Shown in pieces: positions 9,232-27,213 of a DNA stretch of 64,000 nt. The position numbers were made by a program, and so were the translations under genes. The first letter of the stretch is position 1, and each line of letters opens with the position of its first letter. The stretch lies in assembly GCA_036252695.1 (NCBI GenBank), contig GCA_036252695.1_4122.1; one strand, 5' to 3'. The DNA is from a phage. Below the pieces are notes generated by a model. That model was not told the origin of the DNA and did not search any database. It was given only the letters and a program-made list of their open reading frames with translations.

Positions 9232-11961
9232 ATGTCATCAAAACGAATTATAGGAAGTGCCGAGATCCTTGGGAACTTGGCAATTGGACAAAGGTACGCT
9301 ATGCGTACTTTTAATGGAACCTCACCGAATGCCAATACTGGAATTGTTCAATATCCAATATATAAGCGTTCAGAAGTTCAAAGTATTTTAGATATGTTGC
9401 CTATATCACGTGTAGGAGAAATGGATTACTTGCCATTAAACGTAAGTGGGTCGTATGAAGGTGCTACACCTATGTCAAGTGACCAAGTAGTTCAGCCAAC
9501 AATTATTGAAGATGATGGAACCGCCGTTGTTCTGCGTAGCGGAACCAATGGTAGTACTAAAGGTTTTTATTATTCATTTATACGAGAAATCAGAAATATA
9601 ACCATGATTTCACAAGAAAGTGTTATTTCAACCAATTCAATGTATAAACCTTCAATTATGAGTAGTACAGAGAATATTAAGTATTTTATTGGCTCTAATG
9701 GTTATGAAATGCTTGGATGTTTAAGTACAGAAGATAATTATATTTTTACTATAACTAATGGTACATTCAACGAAGTATCACATATTCATGCTAAAGTACC
9801 AAGTACTTCTTTTGGTAATGATATGCCTATATATACTCATATTGTTGGAACAAAAGTATATATTTGGTGTAAAGATAAAAGTGTTTCTAATTTAGGATTA
9901 GCACTTTCAATTTATACAGTAGAGCTAAGTGATGTGAAAGCAAGCTCAATGGCATCATTAACAAAAGTTACTGGATTATCAGGGCAAACTGTTCGAAATA
10001 CAAGTTATTCTGCATCTAATAACATAAGAGTGTTTGATAGATTATATAGTGTTGGTACTAGCTCGGATTCATTATTCGAAGTTACATCACCAGTCTCACG
10101 TGTAGAATTTTCGGATTATACAGACTTTAATATACAAGCAAACGTTAGTACTGATTTATCCAAAATACGTGTAACTTTATACCCAACCCATAGAATGGTT
10201 ACACCTTTATATATTTCAACAGTGTATGGTACTGGTATCAGTTTTGTTTATAATATAAACTCAAAATCTATGTCACTAGATGGTTCTGCTCGTGCTCCTG
10301 CTACAGTTTCATATGATAATGGATTTCAAGTTTCTAACCCATTTGAAATCAATATGGTCAACTTTACTGGGACAACTGCTGCTGGTGTATTAGGAAACGC
10401 AGGTGGTTTATGTCAAACCAAAGATGGTTTAGTATTTGCATCTAAATTTAGATGGAGTTCAACTGAATTTTATGGTCTACAACGATATAAGGTTAGTGGT
10501 ACACCGTTTGATTCATGGGTTGCTAGTACTAGATCCGCAAGTAACGTTATAAATGCAAACGTTTTACCAGTTTTTGGTAGTGCTGTTGGTGCAAACCTAT
10601 TAGGTGTACGTTTCATCGATAATAGAAAAATATTATTAGCATGTTCTGGTACGTATGATGATGTAACATATAATTATAATAATACTGTTTTTTCTGAAAT
10701 AGGCTCACAACCAACATATCAATATAACTCAGTTCAAAATAATACTACATTAAATGGTTTTGCACCACAATCTAATCGTAAACAAATAGGTGATGATTTT
10801 ACATACACTGCTATGATTTCTCTTGTTGATACCGATGGTAGTGTTAGATGTTATGGAACATCATTCATTGAAGGTGTATATAAAACAAGTGGTGGATTAT
10901 TAAACCCAGATACTTTAGAATTTGATGAAACATATACAATAGAACCAACGGTATTAGAATCATTAAAACAAGATATTTTTGCTAATCTAGGAAACTCTGG
11001 CATTGTTGGTACACTATCTGGACAAATTGTATTATATTATGTACCTGATAATACTTTTTCTAAATCCATTGCAGTAGTTTCAGCATATAATCTTAACAAT
11101 AACCAAGGTTATGCAATCTATGCCGAAGTTGATGTTGTATTATCTGGATCTAACATAACTTCAGCTACATTGGTAAGTACTAGATATGAGACACTTAGTT
11201 CTGTTACAGGAATTATTACTGAAGCATATATGAAACGTTGTACTGGTCTAACAGTTGCTAAATATTCAGGATTTGGTTATATTGGTGTTGATGCAGTTCA
11301 TCAATTTTCACAACCAGGTAATGCACAATTTAAGATGATGATAGCTAAAACAGTAAATGGTGTCATAACATCAAATCGTTTTTTATCATCTAGTTACATC
11401 CAACTCGGTGCAGCATATCAACATGGTGTTATTCCTGGTGTTGGTTTTGGATATTACAATTTTCAAGATTCTGACTATCAAACCAAATCTGTATTCAGCG
11501 TTTTTGGTACAACATCTGCTGAAATGGATGGTTTAATTAGCGGAAATGGTAGCGTTAAAGAAAAGATTGTGGTAGTATCACAAGACGTTGCACAAGGATT
11601 CTCAGTGTACTTTACACGTGAAGTTCCGGTATTTTTAGGTGGAATTTTCGACAGACTACCTATACAAAGTGTAGATTTAAGTACTGTAAAAAATAATCCA
11701 GCTAATACTACGTTCTATTTGTATATACAAATGAACAGGAATACTAAGAAAGCTTCATATGTTATTAGTACTGAAACTATTGATGAATCTTTAACTAGCA
11801 CTTACATTGGTAAGATAGTTACTGGAACTTCAGGAATTACTTCGATTGATACTGAAAAAGTGACTCGTTTTTTGACATATCGCCCAAGTACAACGAAACG
11901 TGGTTCAGCGATACCTGCCAGTACTGGTGTACCGTCTGGGTCAGGCACACGTTGGAAATAA
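9232..11961 (+). CDS. tail fibre protein (paralogue B)
   Basis: ORF track 9142..11961; ATG at 9232 with AAGGAAAAG RBS avoids overlap. N-terminus (LPISxxG..YLP, LRSGTNGS) and C-terminus paralogous to 5920..8616. Confidence 0.7.
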   Translation: MSSKRIIGSAEILGNLAIGQRYAMRTFNGTSPNANTGIVQYPIYKRSEVQSILDMLPISRVGEMDYLPLNVSGSYEGATPMSSDQVVQPTIIEDDGTAVVLRSGTNGSTKGFYYSFIREIRNITMISQESVISTNSMYKPSIMSSTENIKYFIGSNGYEMLGCLSTEDNYIFTITNGTFNEVSHIHAKVPSTSFGNDMPIYTHIVGTKVYIWCKDKSVSNLGLALSIYTVELSDVKASSMASLTKVTGLSGQTVRNTSYSASNNIRVFDRLYSVGTSSDSLFEVTSPVSRVEFSDYTDFNIQANVSTDLSKIRVTLYPTHRMVTPLYISTVYGTGISFVYNINSKSMSLDGSARAPATVSYDNGFQVSNPFEINMVNFTGTTAAGVLGNAGGLCQTKDGLVFASKFRWSSTEFYGLQRYKVSGTPFDSWVASTRSASNVINANVLPVFGSAVGANLLGVRFIDNRKILLACSGTYDDVTYNYNNTVFSEIGSQPTYQYNSVQNNTTLNGFAPQSNRKQIGDDFTYTAMISLVDTDGSVRCYGTSFIEGVYKTSGGLLNPDTLEFDETYTIEPTVLESLKQDIFANLGNSGIVGTLSGQIVLYYVPDNTFSKSIAVVSAYNLNNNQGYAIYAEVDVVLSGSNITSATLVSTRYETLSSVTGIITEAYMKRCTGLTVAKYSGFGYIGVDAVHQFSQPGNAQFKMMIAKTVNGVITSNRFLSSSYIQLGAAYQHGVIPGVGFGYYNFQDSDYQTKSVFSVFGTTSAEMDGLISGNGSVKEKIVVVSQDVAQGFSVYFTREVPVFLGGIFDRLPIQSVDLSTVKNNPANTTFYLYIQMNRNTKKASYVISTETIDESLTSTYIGKIVTGTSGITSIDTEKVTRFLTYRPSTTKRGSAIPASTGVPSGSGTRWK

Positions 11962-14033: not shown

Positions 14034-16306
14034 ATAACCAATATATTGAACAAACAATAGTGAAACACTTGGCTGGGTCACAAGCCTACGGAACCAGTAC
14101 ACCTGAAAGTGATACTGATTATCGTGGTATTTTTCTTGCTAATAAAGAATTTATTCTTACACCCTTCTATAAGGTCAAAGAGGTAGCTGATAAAAGCGAA
14201 GAAGATACTAAATTCTATGAGTTGAATCAGTATTTAAAATTATACACTGAAGCTAACCCTAATATTCTTGAATCACTTTGGGTTGAACCTGAACACATTG
14301 TTGAAAGTACTGAAATTTATGACTATCTTCGTTCATTTAACCAAAAACTTCTTAGTTCCAAGATTGCATTTTCATATACTGGTTATGCATATAATCAGAT
14401 TAAGCGTATGACAAATCATCACGGTTGGATGGATAAAGAGCATATTGCTGAACGTAAACTAAATGAAATTTTAGAAGAACATCCAGTCGATGAGGTTCTT
14501 GCGTGGATGTATGATTCATTTCCACAATATCTTGTTGAACGTTTAGATACATCGAACTTACATCCATTTAATGCTAAAAAGATTGATTTTGAAAAATATA
14601 TGCGTGATACGTCATTGCAGTTAGTTTCGAAAAATCCATTAAAGCAATATCATTTTGTAAGATTAGTGCATAACTACACTACTGATAAAATTCTAGATCG
14701 TGATTTCAATTTATTGAATTTTAATAATGGCTATGAACTAATTCATTACGGAGAAAACATTTTTGCGATTATTAAAAATCCGAATGAAAGTACTATCAAT
14801 GCTGATGGTTCACTACGTTACTTCAATAAAGAACGTACTTCGGAAGAATTAAAAGTTCGTCCTGAACTCATTGTAAAATTCAATGAAAAGGAATACAAAG
14901 AAAATAGTGAGAACCGTAAGAGTTATCACAAATGGAAGCAGAACCGTAATGCCAAACGTGCTATTCTTGAATCACACCACGGTTATGACTGTTATAGTTT
15001 TGATACTGAATTCTTAACTAAAGATGGTTGGAAGTTATTTGATGATATTACTGAAAACGATCTATTAGCTACTTTTGACAAAAATCACAAAGTTGAATAT
15101 CAGAAATACACTGAACGTTTTGATAATTTATATAATGGCAATCTATACCATTTCACTGGTCATCACCAAGATACTTTAGTGACTGCTAACCACCGAATGT
15201 ATGTTAAGGATTATGCACGAAATCAACAAAAAGATATGTCTGATTGGAAATTTGTAGAAGCAGCACAATTAAAAGAAACATATAAAATTTTGAATACAAT
15301 ATCCCCAATAACTAAAGAACACAAAGATAAAAAAAGTCCAATTGACTACATGGATATCAAAGTTTATCTTCAACTCATGGGATGGTTTATTTCAGATGGG
15401 TGCATAAATTTCAGGGATGGTAAAGTAAAATCTTTATATATTTCCCAGTCAAAAACTAGTCAAGGTATGCGTTGTGCTTTATCAAAATACAAAAAATCTG
15501 GTCAATTAATGTTTAATGAATACATTATAGAAAAGAAAGATTATCAAGCTAATGACGAATCAAGATATACATTCCCAAGTGAAGTAGCTGAAGCATTATA
15601 TAATGATTGTGGACATGGTTCATATAATAAACGAATTCCAAATTGGGTATTTGATTTAACAAAACGTAAAATGGATTTCCTTCTGAAAGGTTTGTTACAA
15701 GGGGATGGAACAAAACGAAATTTAGTTAATGACAATGATACATTTGTATATTATACTGCCAATTCATTATTAGCTGATGATGTTCAAAAACTAGCATTAC
15801 TATGTGGTTATGAAACATCAAAATGGGGACCATACACAAACGAAACCAATTTTGGTAGTGTTGATATATATCAAATTCATATCAATATGAAACCCAAAAC
15901 CGAAAAAATGAACATGAAACAAAATCTTGAAAAAATTCCAGTTACTAATTACAGAACTGTGTGTTTTTCTGTTCCCAACGGAACACTCATTACTCGTAGA
16001 AATGGAAAAACCGCATTACATGGAAATTGCAAACATGCTATGCATACAATCAGGCTGCTGAATACAGCCGAGGAAGCACTTGAAACTGGTATCATCCAAG
16101 TTCACCGACCGGATGCTGCTATGTTGATGGACATTCGTAACGGGAAGTGGTTGTATCAAGAAGTTATGGATTATTTCAACGAAAAGGTTGACTACATCCG
16201 AAATGTGGCGTATCATAAAACTCATCTACCGAAGCGACCGAACATAAAGTTGGCGACAAAGGTACTATTAGATATCCGTGAAATGCAATGGTACAGTAAA
16301 AAATAA
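14030..16306 (+). CDS. Pol-beta superfamily nucleotidyltransferase interrupted by an in-frame intein
   Basis: N-terminal GS...G....SDxD motif (GSQAYGTSTPESDTDYRGIF); residues 321-666 carry intein blocks and LAGLIDADG motifs; flanking extein reads GYD|CKHAMH. Confidence 0.7.
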   Translation: MNNQYIEQTIVKHLAGSQAYGTSTPESDTDYRGIFLANKEFILTPFYKVKEVADKSEEDTKFYELNQYLKLYTEANPNILESLWVEPEHIVESTEIYDYLRSFNQKLLSSKIAFSYTGYAYNQIKRMTNHHGWMDKEHIAERKLNEILEEHPVDEVLAWMYDSFPQYLVERLDTSNLHPFNAKKIDFEKYMRDTSLQLVSKNPLKQYHFVRLVHNYTTDKILDRDFNLLNFNNGYELIHYGENIFAIIKNPNESTINADGSLRYFNKERTSEELKVRPELIVKFNEKEYKENSENRKSYHKWKQNRNAKRAILESHHGYDCYSFDTEFLTKDGWKLFDDITENDLLATFDKNHKVEYQKYTERFDNLYNGNLYHFTGHHQDTLVTANHRMYVKDYARNQQKDMSDWKFVEAAQLKETYKILNTISPITKEHKDKKSPIDYMDIKVYLQLMGWFISDGCINFRDGKVKSLYISQSKTSQGMRCALSKYKKSGQLMFNEYIIEKKDYQANDESRYTFPSEVAEALYNDCGHGSYNKRIPNWVFDLTKRKMDFLLKGLLQGDGTKRNLVNDNDTFVYYTANSLLADDVQKLALLCGYETSKWGPYTNETNFGSVDIYQIHINMKPKTEKMNMKQNLEKIPVTNYRTVCFSVPNGTLITRRNGKTALHGNCKHAMHTIRLLNTAEEALETGIIQVHRPDAAMLMDIRNGKWLYQEVMDYFNEKVDYIRNVAYHKTHLPKRPNIKLATKVLLDIREMQWYSKK
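14990..16027 (+). mobile_element. intein with LAGLIDADG homing-endonuclease domain (346 aa, in-frame)
   Basis: Starts with Cys (CYSFDTEFLTKDGWK, block A), TxxH block B (DTLVTANH), two LAGLIDADG-like motifs (LMGWFISDG, LKGLLQGDG), ends ...ALHGN followed by extein Cys. Confidence 0.6.
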
Positions 16307-25357: not shown

Positions 25358-25768
25358 ATGATTGAAATGGAAGGAACTCTGGTGTATGATCCAGAACGTG
25401 GCACTATGAAAAAGAAGAAGGACTTCTGGTTAGTACTACAACTTCCATTACAGTTGGTTCGATACTACCAGTACTTCATCAGAACTGACTTACATATTGA
25501 TATTAAAGACCCACAATGGGGAGCACATGTCAGTATCGTTCGTGGTGAAGTGCCACCAAATCCAGAGTACTGGAAAAAGTACGATGGAATGAAAGTAAAG
25601 ATAAAGTTCAATCCTTGTATTGAGATAGTAAAAGATAAAAAGAATCCAGGTTCATTCTTTATCATTGAATTTGAAGATGATTTCATCACACATATTAGAA
25701 ATGAACTAGGACTACCAACCAAGTACTTTAAATATCACATCACTGTAGGTAGAACCTACTACGATTAA
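25358..25768 (+). CDS. 2H phosphoesterase superfamily protein (LigT/cyclic phosphodiesterase-like; possible Acb1-like anti-CBASS nuclease)
   Basis: Two H-x-(S/T)-x motifs (AHVSIV and YHITVG) about 70 residues apart in a ~136-aa protein, the hallmark of the 2H fold. Confidence 0.55.
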   Translation: MIEMEGTLVYDPERGTMKKKKDFWLVLQLPLQLVRYYQYFIRTDLHIDIKDPQWGAHVSIVRGEVPPNPEYWKKYDGMKVKIKFNPCIEIVKDKKNPGSFFIIEFEDDFITHIRNELGLPTKYFKYHITVGRTYYD

Positions 25769-25903: not shown

Positions 25904-26863
25904 TTGCCCATCTTAACAATCAACAAAGGAGGCGTTTTGAAACAAGCGAAAAAAGCACTGAAAACTAAGACTACTTATGGTGTTCTAGTTTGCACAGTAC
26001 TTGTCGCTGCGATTGGATTTTATGGTTTTTCTCAAAATGATCGTGTATCATCATCGGACGAAAGTCAGGTACACAATTTAAAACCACAAGTTACGCAAAT
26101 TCAAAAGCAGGAATTACCAAAGGTAGAAATATCAAAGGATGTTCCACGCGGCGAGAAGCATTATACGGTTCAACCTGGTGATAGTTATTATTCTATTGCT
26201 AAAAAGTTTAAACCTAAAAATGTACAACTTGAAGAGTATGTTATTTTGTTGAAAAATATCAATTTAAATGCTACTCTTCATACTTCTCAGGGTATCTTTA
26301 TCCCAACAAAAGAGGATTTGAAGAACGTATTGTTACCAGATGTGACTGTACTGTTTGATTATAATGATCCAGAAATTGTCAATCACATCAAAGAAGCTGA
26401 AGGTTCAATTGAATTTCAGTCCAAGAACAAACGCCGTTTACTTGGTGGGAAAGTCGGAGTTCCTTTCCACAATTCTAAATTTCATCCCTACAAGGACATG
26501 AAAGGTAATTATACAATAGGTTATGGGCATTATTTGGGTAGAAAAGAATCTGATGCGATTAAGTACAGAAACGGTATTACCAAAGCTCAAGCCAATAAAC
26601 TTTTAATGCAAGATATGAAAAGAACATATAATGACTTTTTATTATTGATGCAGAAAAAAGAAGCAGTAAATCTGACCAAAGAACAACAACGTATTCTTTA
26701 TGAAATGTCCTATACAATGGGTGTTGATAAATTAGCAACGTTTAATAAACTTTGGAAAAGTGTGAAAAATGATAACCCTAAGAAATTTAAAAAAGAAATT
26801 ATGAATTCCTTATGGTATCGTCAAGTTACAAACCGAGCAGATTTGTTGTTAAGTTCACTCTAA
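25904..26863 (+). CDS. LysM-domain lysozyme (T4 e-like, GH24) with N-terminal transmembrane anchor; start codon uncertain (TTG)
   Basis: C-terminal half matches T4 lysozyme (YKDxxGxYTIGxGH, WYxQxxNRA); LysM motif YTVQPGDSYYSIAKKF; hydrophobic helix near N-terminus; no in-frame ATG before the domain, strong AAAGGAGG at 25925-25932. Confidence 0.75.
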   Translation: MPILTINKGGVLKQAKKALKTKTTYGVLVCTVLVAAIGFYGFSQNDRVSSSDESQVHNLKPQVTQIQKQELPKVEISKDVPRGEKHYTVQPGDSYYSIAKKFKPKNVQLEEYVILLKNINLNATLHTSQGIFIPTKEDLKNVLLPDVTVLFDYNDPEIVNHIKEAEGSIEFQSKNKRRLLGGKVGVPFHNSKFHPYKDMKGNYTIGYGHYLGRKESDAIKYRNGITKAQANKLLMQDMKRTYNDFLLLMQKKEAVNLTKEQQRILYEMSYTMGVDKLATFNKLWKSVKNDNPKKFKKEIMNSLWYRQVTNRADLLLSSL

Positions 26864-26880: not shown

Positions 26881-27213
26881 ATGCTAAATCTAAATATCCA
26901 AGGCAACGTTGATATCACTCCAGCAATCCAAGATGCTATTTACAATGAAGCAAAAAGTCTGGATAAGTACCGTACTTCTTCAGTACTAGACATTGGTGTT
27001 CATGTTAAGAAAGAGCATAAAACTCAATATGCTGTAACTTTAACTGCTGGTAGTAAATCAGTAACTGCTGATGATGCTGATTTGTATAAAGCAATTGTTG
27101 AATCTTTTGATAAGATGGAAACTGTATTCAGTAAAGACAAAAGCATTAAATTACACCGCCGAAACCATCCAGAACACCCAGTTCTTGATGATTTGACAGA
27201 AAACGAAGAGTAA
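26881..27213 (+). CDS. hpf: ribosome hibernation-promoting factor (HPF/YfiA/RaiA family)
   Basis: Alignable along its length with E. coli HPF (MLNLNIQGNVDIT.. versus MQLNITGNNVEIT..; DLYKAI versus DMYAAI); AAGGAAGG RBS. Confidence 0.65.
   Translation: MLNLNIQGNVDITPAIQDAIYNEAKSLDKYRTSSVLDIGVHVKKEHKTQYAVTLTAGSKSVTADDADLYKAIVESFDKMETVFSKDKSIKLHRRNHPEHPVLDDLTENEE

Follow-up and report, generated by a model that had tools for sequence, protein, structure and literature searches.

A stand-alone 2H phosphodiesterase of the 2H-SAK lineage in jumbo phages, predicted to lie outside the Acb1 family and a candidate for RNA end healing

We analysed a stretch of phage DNA of 64,000 nucleotides (GenBank assembly GCA_036252695.1, contig GCA_036252695.1_4122.1; hereafter, the window) with a focus on one small gene, located at 25358..25768 on the + strand (stop codon included). 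On the strength of its open reading frame (ORF), its Pfam and PHROGs matches and its modelled fold, this gene is predicted to encode a genuine 2H phosphodiesterase of 136 amino acids (aa), namely, a minimal cyclic phosphodiesterase that stands alone and is placed in the 2H-SAK lineage (PHROG 12204), a family characteristic of jumbo and huge phages. A previous sequence-only reading of this locus had proposed a small 2H phosphoesterase, either an Acb1-like nuclease directed against CBASS (antiphage signalling that relies on cyclic oligonucleotides) or an RNA-repair enzyme. Our results amend this expectation: the protein appears to be a genuine 2H enzyme that falls outside the Acb1 family, and healing of RNA or tRNA ends is a more likely function than degradation of immune signals.

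Catalytic motifs, fold and family placement

Over 3 kb, the window shares 99.8% identity with Escherichia phage SP27, and its identity to phages 121Q, PBECO4 and phAPEC6 is 96-99%. Like the phage of the window, these coliphages are RaK2-like jumbo myoviruses of the genus Asteriusvirus, with genomes of about 350 kb. The 2H gene is retained at 88-100% identity throughout the genus, with its product named 'hypothetical protein' in all these records. The 136-codon ORF lies within a long run of genes on the same strand and opens with the ATG at 25358, which is also the start in the 121Q record, whereas the SP27 GenBank record places the start at the GTG at 25382 (128 aa). We favour the ATG because residues 2-10 are conserved across the family (G6 in 158 of 178 homologues). 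A scan for promoters and terminators around the gene yielded matches at chance level only.

The two H-x-(S/T)-x motifs highlighted by the sequence-only reading are present as described in this protein. The first, A56-H57-V58-S59 (nt 25523-25534, + strand), lies on a predicted beta-strand spanning residues 57-62, and the second, Y126-H127-I128-T129 (nt 25733-25744, + strand), which is followed by G131-R132, on a predicted strand spanning residues 126-132. Both are conserved in the homologues, and H57 and H127 are separated by 70 residues. In weak hidden Markov model (HMM) alignments, the H-x-T-x-G-R stretch at the second motif resembles the second motif of LigT.

Such a pair of motifs is, by itself, weak and non-diagnostic evidence, because it also occurs in an antisense ORF and in other six-frame ORFs. 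When a strict pair was defined as two H-hydrophobic-S/T-hydrophobic motifs 45-120 residues apart, it was recovered in 0.035% of the shuffled versions of the window protein, as compared to 1.0% for a loose HxS/T pair. Six-frame ORFs with a minimum length of 40 aa have the strict pair in 3 of 2999 cases in the 121Q genome and in 2 of 529 cases in the window. One of these is the antisense ORF (27981-28349, - strand), whose 122-aa product contains two H-x-T motifs (PHYTL and QHYTF) at a spacing of 47 residues. It overlaps annotated genes of the + strand, and we regard its pair as fortuitous. By itself, the pair was accordingly rejected as evidence of a 2H enzyme. A further pair, whose motifs are 59 residues apart (CHVSV and LHCTV), is present in the 107-aa hypothetical protein encoded by 121Q gene 282 (NC_025447.1, 143365-143688), which has no Pfam match; the pair could have arisen by chance, or the protein could be another 2H-like one of very small size.

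Conservation of the window protein and its predicted fold, taken together, provide the decisive evidence of a genuine 2H protein beyond a chance pair of motifs. Across 178 aligned homologues, the catalytic residues are nearly invariant (H57 in 178/178, S/T59 in 177/178, H127 in 175/178 and T/S129 in 176/178), and the sequences without H127 are truncated. Further residues conserved in the family are G6, Y10-D11-P12, W24, Y36-Y37, W54, R62-G63-E64, W72, R114 and G118. Structure prediction, which could have returned an unrelated fold, returned that of the 2H superfamily: in the AlphaFold2 model built from a 21-sequence alignment (predicted local distance difference test score, pLDDT, 90.6; predicted template modelling score 0.83), each HxS/T motif sits on a beta-strand preceded by a helix, and both strands line the central cleft of a bilobed alpha+beta fold. 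The N-terminal 24 residues (25358..25429, + strand), carry the family-specific G6, Y10-D11-P12, R14 and W24 and include a loop, residues 11-20, that is modelled with lower confidence (pLDDT about 71). By analogy with PDE-9, a phage 2H phosphodiesterase with an N-terminal lid (bioRxiv 10.1101/2025.08.21.671373), this segment might form a lid as well.

The only relevant Pfam match of the window protein, and the only sequence family detectable for it, is PF22547 ('2H-SAK'), at 25.8 bits and E = 1.4e-5, just below the gathering score of 27 bits. The match covers residues 89-136, corresponding to the C-terminal third of the Pfam model only. With this near-threshold match added to the invariant motifs and the predicted fold, the proposal of a small 2H phosphoesterase is supported. 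Pfam describes the family as 'Swiss Army Knife 2H phosphoesterase domain', defined by comparative genomics and linked to RNA repair; our understanding of the name derives from this description line and from later papers by the same group. In PHROGs, the protein matches phrog_12204 (function unknown) with E = 4e-67. Among 119 diverse family members, PF22547 is matched by 96 (E <= 0.01), LigT_PEase by three and Acb1 by none; a precomputed PF22547 match is present in 24 of 29 close homologues, one of which is named accordingly in UniRef. NCBIfam and PADLOC searches of the window protein gave no matches.

In an exhaustive profile search (E <= 1e-3), the family amounted to about 1100 clusters formed at 50% identity; almost all of their representatives are stand-alone proteins of 130-170 aa, and almost all come from huge phages. 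In GenBank, the family extends from the RaK2-like phages of enterobacteria to jumbo phages of Vibrio, Bacillus (phage G), Agrobacterium (Atu_ph07) and Ralstonia (RsoM2USA), whereas the IMG/VR matches are mostly on contigs of tens to hundreds of kilobases, up to about 600 kb. The family is thus already in Pfam and PHROGs, and phage 2H domains have been discussed in general terms in comparative-genomics papers. Our literature search found no mention of PF22547 or 2H-SAK, and found phrog_12204 mentioned only in a paper on phage G (PMC12484599).

Gene linkage and a candidate role in RNA end healing

For 74 huge-phage loci from IMG/VR, ORFs were called in the 10-kb flanks of the 2H gene, BLASTP clusters were extended with HMMs and the recurrent clusters were annotated with Pfam. 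The 2H proteins of these loci fall into 12 clades at 50% identity. An RNA ligase (PF09414) is encoded within 10 kb at 31 loci (4 clades), a CCA-adding enzyme at 17 (4 clades), PTH2 at 17 (3 clades), YqeY at 14 (4 clades) and RlaP at seven (4 clades). Proteins linked to ADP-ribose recur in the same flanks, namely, Nudix at 20 loci (4 clades), Macro at 13 (1 clade), NADAR at 10 (5 clades) and ADP-ribosylglycohydrolase at six (3 clades), the last directly adjoining the 2H gene in loci L082 and L083. Each of the 31 ligase genes shares its strand with the 2H gene, and in 28 cases the distance between the two is no more than 3.3 kb. If single-copy genes were scattered randomly over a genome of 350 kb, we estimate that about 2% would come to lie that close, a figure that is an estimate rather than a measured background. 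The ligases represent three mutually unalignable subtypes, one of about 420 aa that includes an OB domain, another of about 205 aa and a third of 214-341 aa; the clades concerned have almost no other neighbour in common, the rest of the neighbourhood having turned over. In clade 2, the ligase is flanked by a His phosphatase and a methyltransferase.

YqeY, a tRNA-affinity domain (PMC1865053), is encoded two genes from the 2H gene in L082 and in phage Atu_ph07, and among the multidomain relatives scanned for fusions, the only informative one joins the two: the 335-aa protein P0035 (L011, 952-1959) consists of a 2H-SAK-like domain and a YqeY (GatB-like, tRNA-binding) domain. At locus L008, from a metagenomic relative, the gene order is Band_7 ... 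RNA ligase, HAD, PRTase_3, DUF2828/DUF7788, 2H, a 170-aa protein, lysozyme, HPF, CCA, Nudix, Grx, YqeY ... PTH2, and the same order is found in Serratia phage BF.

Given this context, we consider it about an even bet that the window protein heals 2',3'-cyclic phosphate ends of RNA or tRNA. By comparative genomics, phage 2H domains have been assigned to the clean-up of 2',3'-cyclic phosphates in RNA repair linked to nicotinamide adenine dinucleotide (NAD) and ADP-ribose (PMC9503650, section 3.7.3; PMC7824862, sections 3.4.8-3.4.9). We infer the substrate, the regiochemistry of the product and a partnership with the ligase, the CCA-adding enzyme and YqeY along the following lines. Metal-independent RNases of the host would leave 2',3'-cyclic phosphate ends on RNA, chiefly tRNA; the two His-x-Ser/Thr motifs would open the cyclic phosphate to yield a 2'-phosphate and a free 3'-OH; and the healed end might then be used by an RNA ligase or, when the 3' terminus of a tRNA has been damaged, by a phage CCA-adding enzyme that lacks an HD domain. 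Neighbours of the Nudix, Macro and NADAR types would process the ADP-ribose by-products that arise when the 2'-phosphate is removed in an NAD-dependent reaction. The RNA-repair option of the sequence-only reading, which had been tied to the nearby CCA-adding enzyme and to the LigT fold, is better supported by gene context than its Acb1 option, although membership in the LigT family fails.

The window itself shows the linkage to repair nucleotidyltransferases. A CCA-adding tRNA nucleotidyltransferase of 370 aa (28813..29925, + strand) is encoded 3 kb downstream of the 2H gene, and RlaP, an RNA-repair nucleotidyltransferase of the Pol-beta type (PF10127; 14030..16306, + strand), 9-11 kb upstream. 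The CCA-adding enzyme matches only PolyA_pol and PolyA_pol_RNAbd in Pfam and has neither an HD dipeptide nor any His beyond residue 171; unlike E. coli Cca, it is therefore predicted to be devoid of an HD phosphohydrolase domain. In E. coli Cca, it is the HD domain that confers the activities of a 2',3'-cyclic phosphodiesterase and a phosphatase. We regard the CCA-adding enzyme as a candidate downstream partner of the 2H protein.

All within 7 kb downstream of the 2H gene are, in addition to the CCA-adding enzyme, an HPF/RaiA ribosome-associated factor (26881..27213, + strand; Ribosomal_S30AE, 41 bits), a NudE-like Nudix hydrolase (30033..30434, + strand), a Macro domain (Appr-1''-p processing) protein (31264..31740, + strand; annotated as such in the 121Q RefSeq record, with a weak Pfam Macro match of 16 bits) and a divergent homologue of PTH2-type peptidyl-tRNA hydrolases (32081..32458, + strand), identified in a phmmer comparison with the PTH2 protein of L008 (E = 2e-16). 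The ORF of the latter is hypothetical in the 121Q annotation and has no direct Pfam match. The same segment includes genes for a LysM-lysozyme (25904-26863) and a glutaredoxin (30436-30684), and the placement of the HPF/RaiA hibernation-factor homologue directly after the LysM-lysozyme gene is kept in the RaK2-like phages.

RlaP of the window is 758 aa long, whereas its 121Q counterpart has 410 aa and aligns with residues 1-321 and about 667-755; the intervening in-frame insertion (about 345 aa, with a LAGLIDADG_3 match) begins at a Cys and ends with HGN just before a Cys, and thus looks like an intein with a homing endonuclease. Elsewhere, 121Q encodes a T4-type Rnl1 ligase and Pnkp, about 50 kb away from the 2H gene, and a tRNA cluster. 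Three further genes of 121Q, located outside the window at 220175-221805 of NC_025447.1, encode Sir2, a Nudix protein resembling Nudt16 and cREC (cyclic-phosphate processing receiver). This trio corresponds to a putative RNA-repair module centred on sirtuin that has been described in jumbo phages; no 2H gene is adjacent to it. PF09414 RNA ligases are absent from both the window and 121Q. Use of the RNA ligase encoded beside the 2H gene in the relatives was rejected for the window phage, as the block to which that ligase belongs is missing from the whole 121Q genome. Plausible partners in Asteriusvirus are the HD-less CCA-adding enzyme, Rnl1 and Pnkp encoded elsewhere in the genome, or none.

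The ADP-ribose-linked neighbours also lend themselves to a different explanation, in which the protein is a small-molecule cyclic phosphodiesterase of NAD/ADP-ribose metabolism that would hydrolyse Appr>p (ADP-ribose 1'',2''-cyclic phosphate) or a related cyclic phosphate derived from ADP-ribose, with Macro and Nudix enzymes finishing the pathway, either as clean-up or in opposition to NAD-based defence. We hold this to be quite improbable: Macro linkage is confined to a single clade of the 74-locus set, Nudix genes are common in jumbo phages and no KptA/Tpt1 is annotated in 121Q. This explanation also overlaps with, rather than excludes, RNA repair. Still other roles known for the fold, such as 2'-5' RNA ligation or U6-type 3'-end trimming as by Usb1, or retention of the His residues for binding only, appear highly improbable, given that the full H-x-S/T tetrad is strictly retained across more than 170 divergent sequences, which favours catalysis. 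Moreover, LigT is considered to ligate 2'-5' by running its phosphodiesterase reaction backwards.

RNA end healing could take a more specific form. The 2H protein might be a jumbo-phage-specific, trans-acting subunit for healing tRNA 3' ends, a minimal enzyme that in many phages would be guided by a YqeY tRNA-binding partner or fusion; it would take 2',3'-cyclic phosphates off tRNAs clipped by host defence nucleases, after which the HD-less phage CCA-adding enzyme or a ligase would rebuild the tRNAs, in a repair route distinct from the Pnkp/Rnl1 pathway of T4. Alternatively, it might destroy an immune messenger outside the coverage of Acb1, which would explain why a 2H-SAK-like gene and Acb1 sit together in some phages. 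Even taken jointly, these two proposals remain doubtful.

Relation to Acb1 and immune signals

As far as family membership is concerned, the Acb1-like candidacy advanced in the sequence-only reading is not borne out. Acb1 is represented by gp57B of T4 and the protein of Erwinia phage FBB1, by PDB entries 7T26 and 7T27 and by the Pfam family PF23474. The window protein does not match PF23474 even at E <= 10, whereas T4 Acb1 (gp57B) scores 202.7 bits; BLASTP against T4 Acb1 gives E = 0.1, and the identity to Acb1 is 13%. In hhalign, the 119-sequence family profile reaches a probability of 15% over 31 columns against a 17-sequence Acb1 profile, and the result against T4 Acb1 alone is non-significant. 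As the second half of the family is paired with the first half of Acb1, the hhalign alignment reflects only the internal duplication of the fold. Together with the lack of Acb1 matches among the 119 family members and of the lid discussed next, these results led us to reject membership in the Acb1 family.

The spacing of the catalytic His residues is one point of likeness: H44 and H113 of T4 Acb1 are 69 residues apart (PMC9117128), compared to 70 in the window protein. Beyond the second His, the two proteins differ. Structurally, Acb1 is defined by E141 and by a C-terminal lid (residues 145-152, with W147) that closes over the ligand (PMC9117128), and the T4 protein runs for 39 residues past H113. 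The window protein stops nine residues past H127 and thus has no lid of the Acb1 type and no counterpart of E141 and W147. Aromatic residues Y12, W74 and F107 of Acb1 stack on both bases; the window family has conserved aromatics of its own (Y10, W24, W54 and W72), as judged from the sequence alignment.

The 2H-SAK-like gene and Acb1 also occur together. In L059 and L060, a pair of metagenomic huge-phage contigs from IMG/VR, the 2H-SAK-like gene at 10001-10405 (+ strand) is 4.4 kb away from a gene at 14802-15212 (- strand) for a true homologue of Acb1, which matches the Acb1 profile with E = 2e-21, suggesting that the two genes are not redundant. Likewise, going by database names only, phage fHe-Yen9-04 encodes both an orthologue of the window gene and a different protein that is entered in BFVD as 'Anti-CBASS protein Acb1'. 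Within the same PHROG as the window protein, gp116 of phage G was labelled as Acb1 in a 2025 paper from an HHpred match, without experiment (PMC12484599).

An action on immune signals need not involve kinship with Acb1, and the protein could represent a separate 2H lineage acting as Acb1 or as 2',5'-phosphodiesterases of the ns2 type do, on messengers of CBASS, type III CRISPR or other systems based on (cyclic) oligonucleotides. Such activities are well represented among phage 2H proteins: of the 16 phage 2H phosphodiesterases tested by Doherty et al., some are broad messenger nucleases. In the same study, two of the seven structural groups tested cleaved none of 18 messengers (bioRxiv 10.1101/2025.08.21.671373), and the 2H fold alone is therefore no predictor of anti-CBASS activity. 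Weighing against an immune-signal phosphodiesterase are, furthermore, the lack of sequence relation to Acb1 and of its lid, the presence of a true or separately named Acb1 in the phages mentioned above, and neighbours that are translation and RNA-repair genes, with no known anti-defence genes among them. We consider this explanation unlikely, albeit one to be taken seriously.

Several observations weigh against RNA end healing. The linkage statistics were obtained without a proper control for genomic background, and the clades may share ancient synteny. Cyclic ends are already resolved by Pnkp of the T4 type, which 121Q encodes. Neither 121Q nor the window contains any homologue of the ligase-HAD-PRTase-DUF2828 block, of the 170-aa gene or of YqeY, and yet the 2H gene is kept, so that its function there cannot depend on that ligase. 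Other points speak for an anti-signal role: no Acb1 is detectable in 121Q, and such a role would therefore not be redundant in this phage; the best structural match of the model is Acb1, albeit by a small margin, in weak agreement with which Foldseek gives Acb1 at E = 0.019; and 2H enzymes are promiscuous, with many stand-alone phage 2H proteins cleaving immune messengers (bioRxiv 10.1101/2025.08.21.671373).

It has become almost automatic to interpret a phage 2H phosphodiesterase as an anti-CBASS enzyme of the Acb1 type. The 2H-SAK-like lineage is large and separate, is set among tRNA, translation and RNA-repair genes and, in some phages, is found beside a real Acb1; the 'Acb1' annotation should not spread to it. 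If the protein heals tRNA ends, it would be a new component of the counter-measures of jumbo phages against tRNA-cleaving defences, and if it degrades immune signals, it would found a new Acb family with a different substrate range. Whichever holds, the substrate is directly testable with one small soluble protein.

Comparison with other 2H enzymes

The LigT/ThpR enzymes (E. coli ThpR, Pyrococcus PH0099 and the Deinococcus CPDase) are longer than the window protein by about 40 residues. The window protein has no match to the LigT/ThpR families of Pfam (PF02834 and PF13563), which only three of the 119 family members match, weakly, and hhalign against E. coli ThpR gives a probability of 1.9%. 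When sequences of solved structures were searched, neither the window protein alone nor the 119-sequence profile had a significant match, the PDB sequence matches having E values of 0.17-0.35, and membership in the LigT/ThpR family was rejected on these grounds.

Mouse hepatitis virus ns2, the C-terminal domain of rotavirus VP3 and AKAP7 are viral and cellular 2',5'-phosphodiesterases that act on 2'-5' oligoadenylate, in the setting of eukaryotic viruses, and have no sequence relation to the window protein. Closer in provenance is PDE-9 of Burkholderia phage BCSR5 (PDB 9Q2Y/9Q2G), which is 9% identical to the window protein; PDE-9 has 44.8% sequence similarity to Acb1 and falls within the structural group of the latter (bioRxiv 10.1101/2025.08.21.671373). 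Atu_ph07 and EJP2 are represented in the list of 75 phage 2H phosphodiesterases of Doherty et al. by 2H genes other than those of the window family.

The closest known system is 2H-SAK itself (PF22547), with which the window protein shares the two HxS/T motifs and a predicted RNA-repair setting. One difference lies in domain organization: SAK proteins are multidomain, combining the 2H domain with HAD and other domains, whereas the relatives of the window protein are stand-alone, YqeY being the only fusion partner seen, and in relatives the HAD and the ligase are encoded by separate neighbouring genes.
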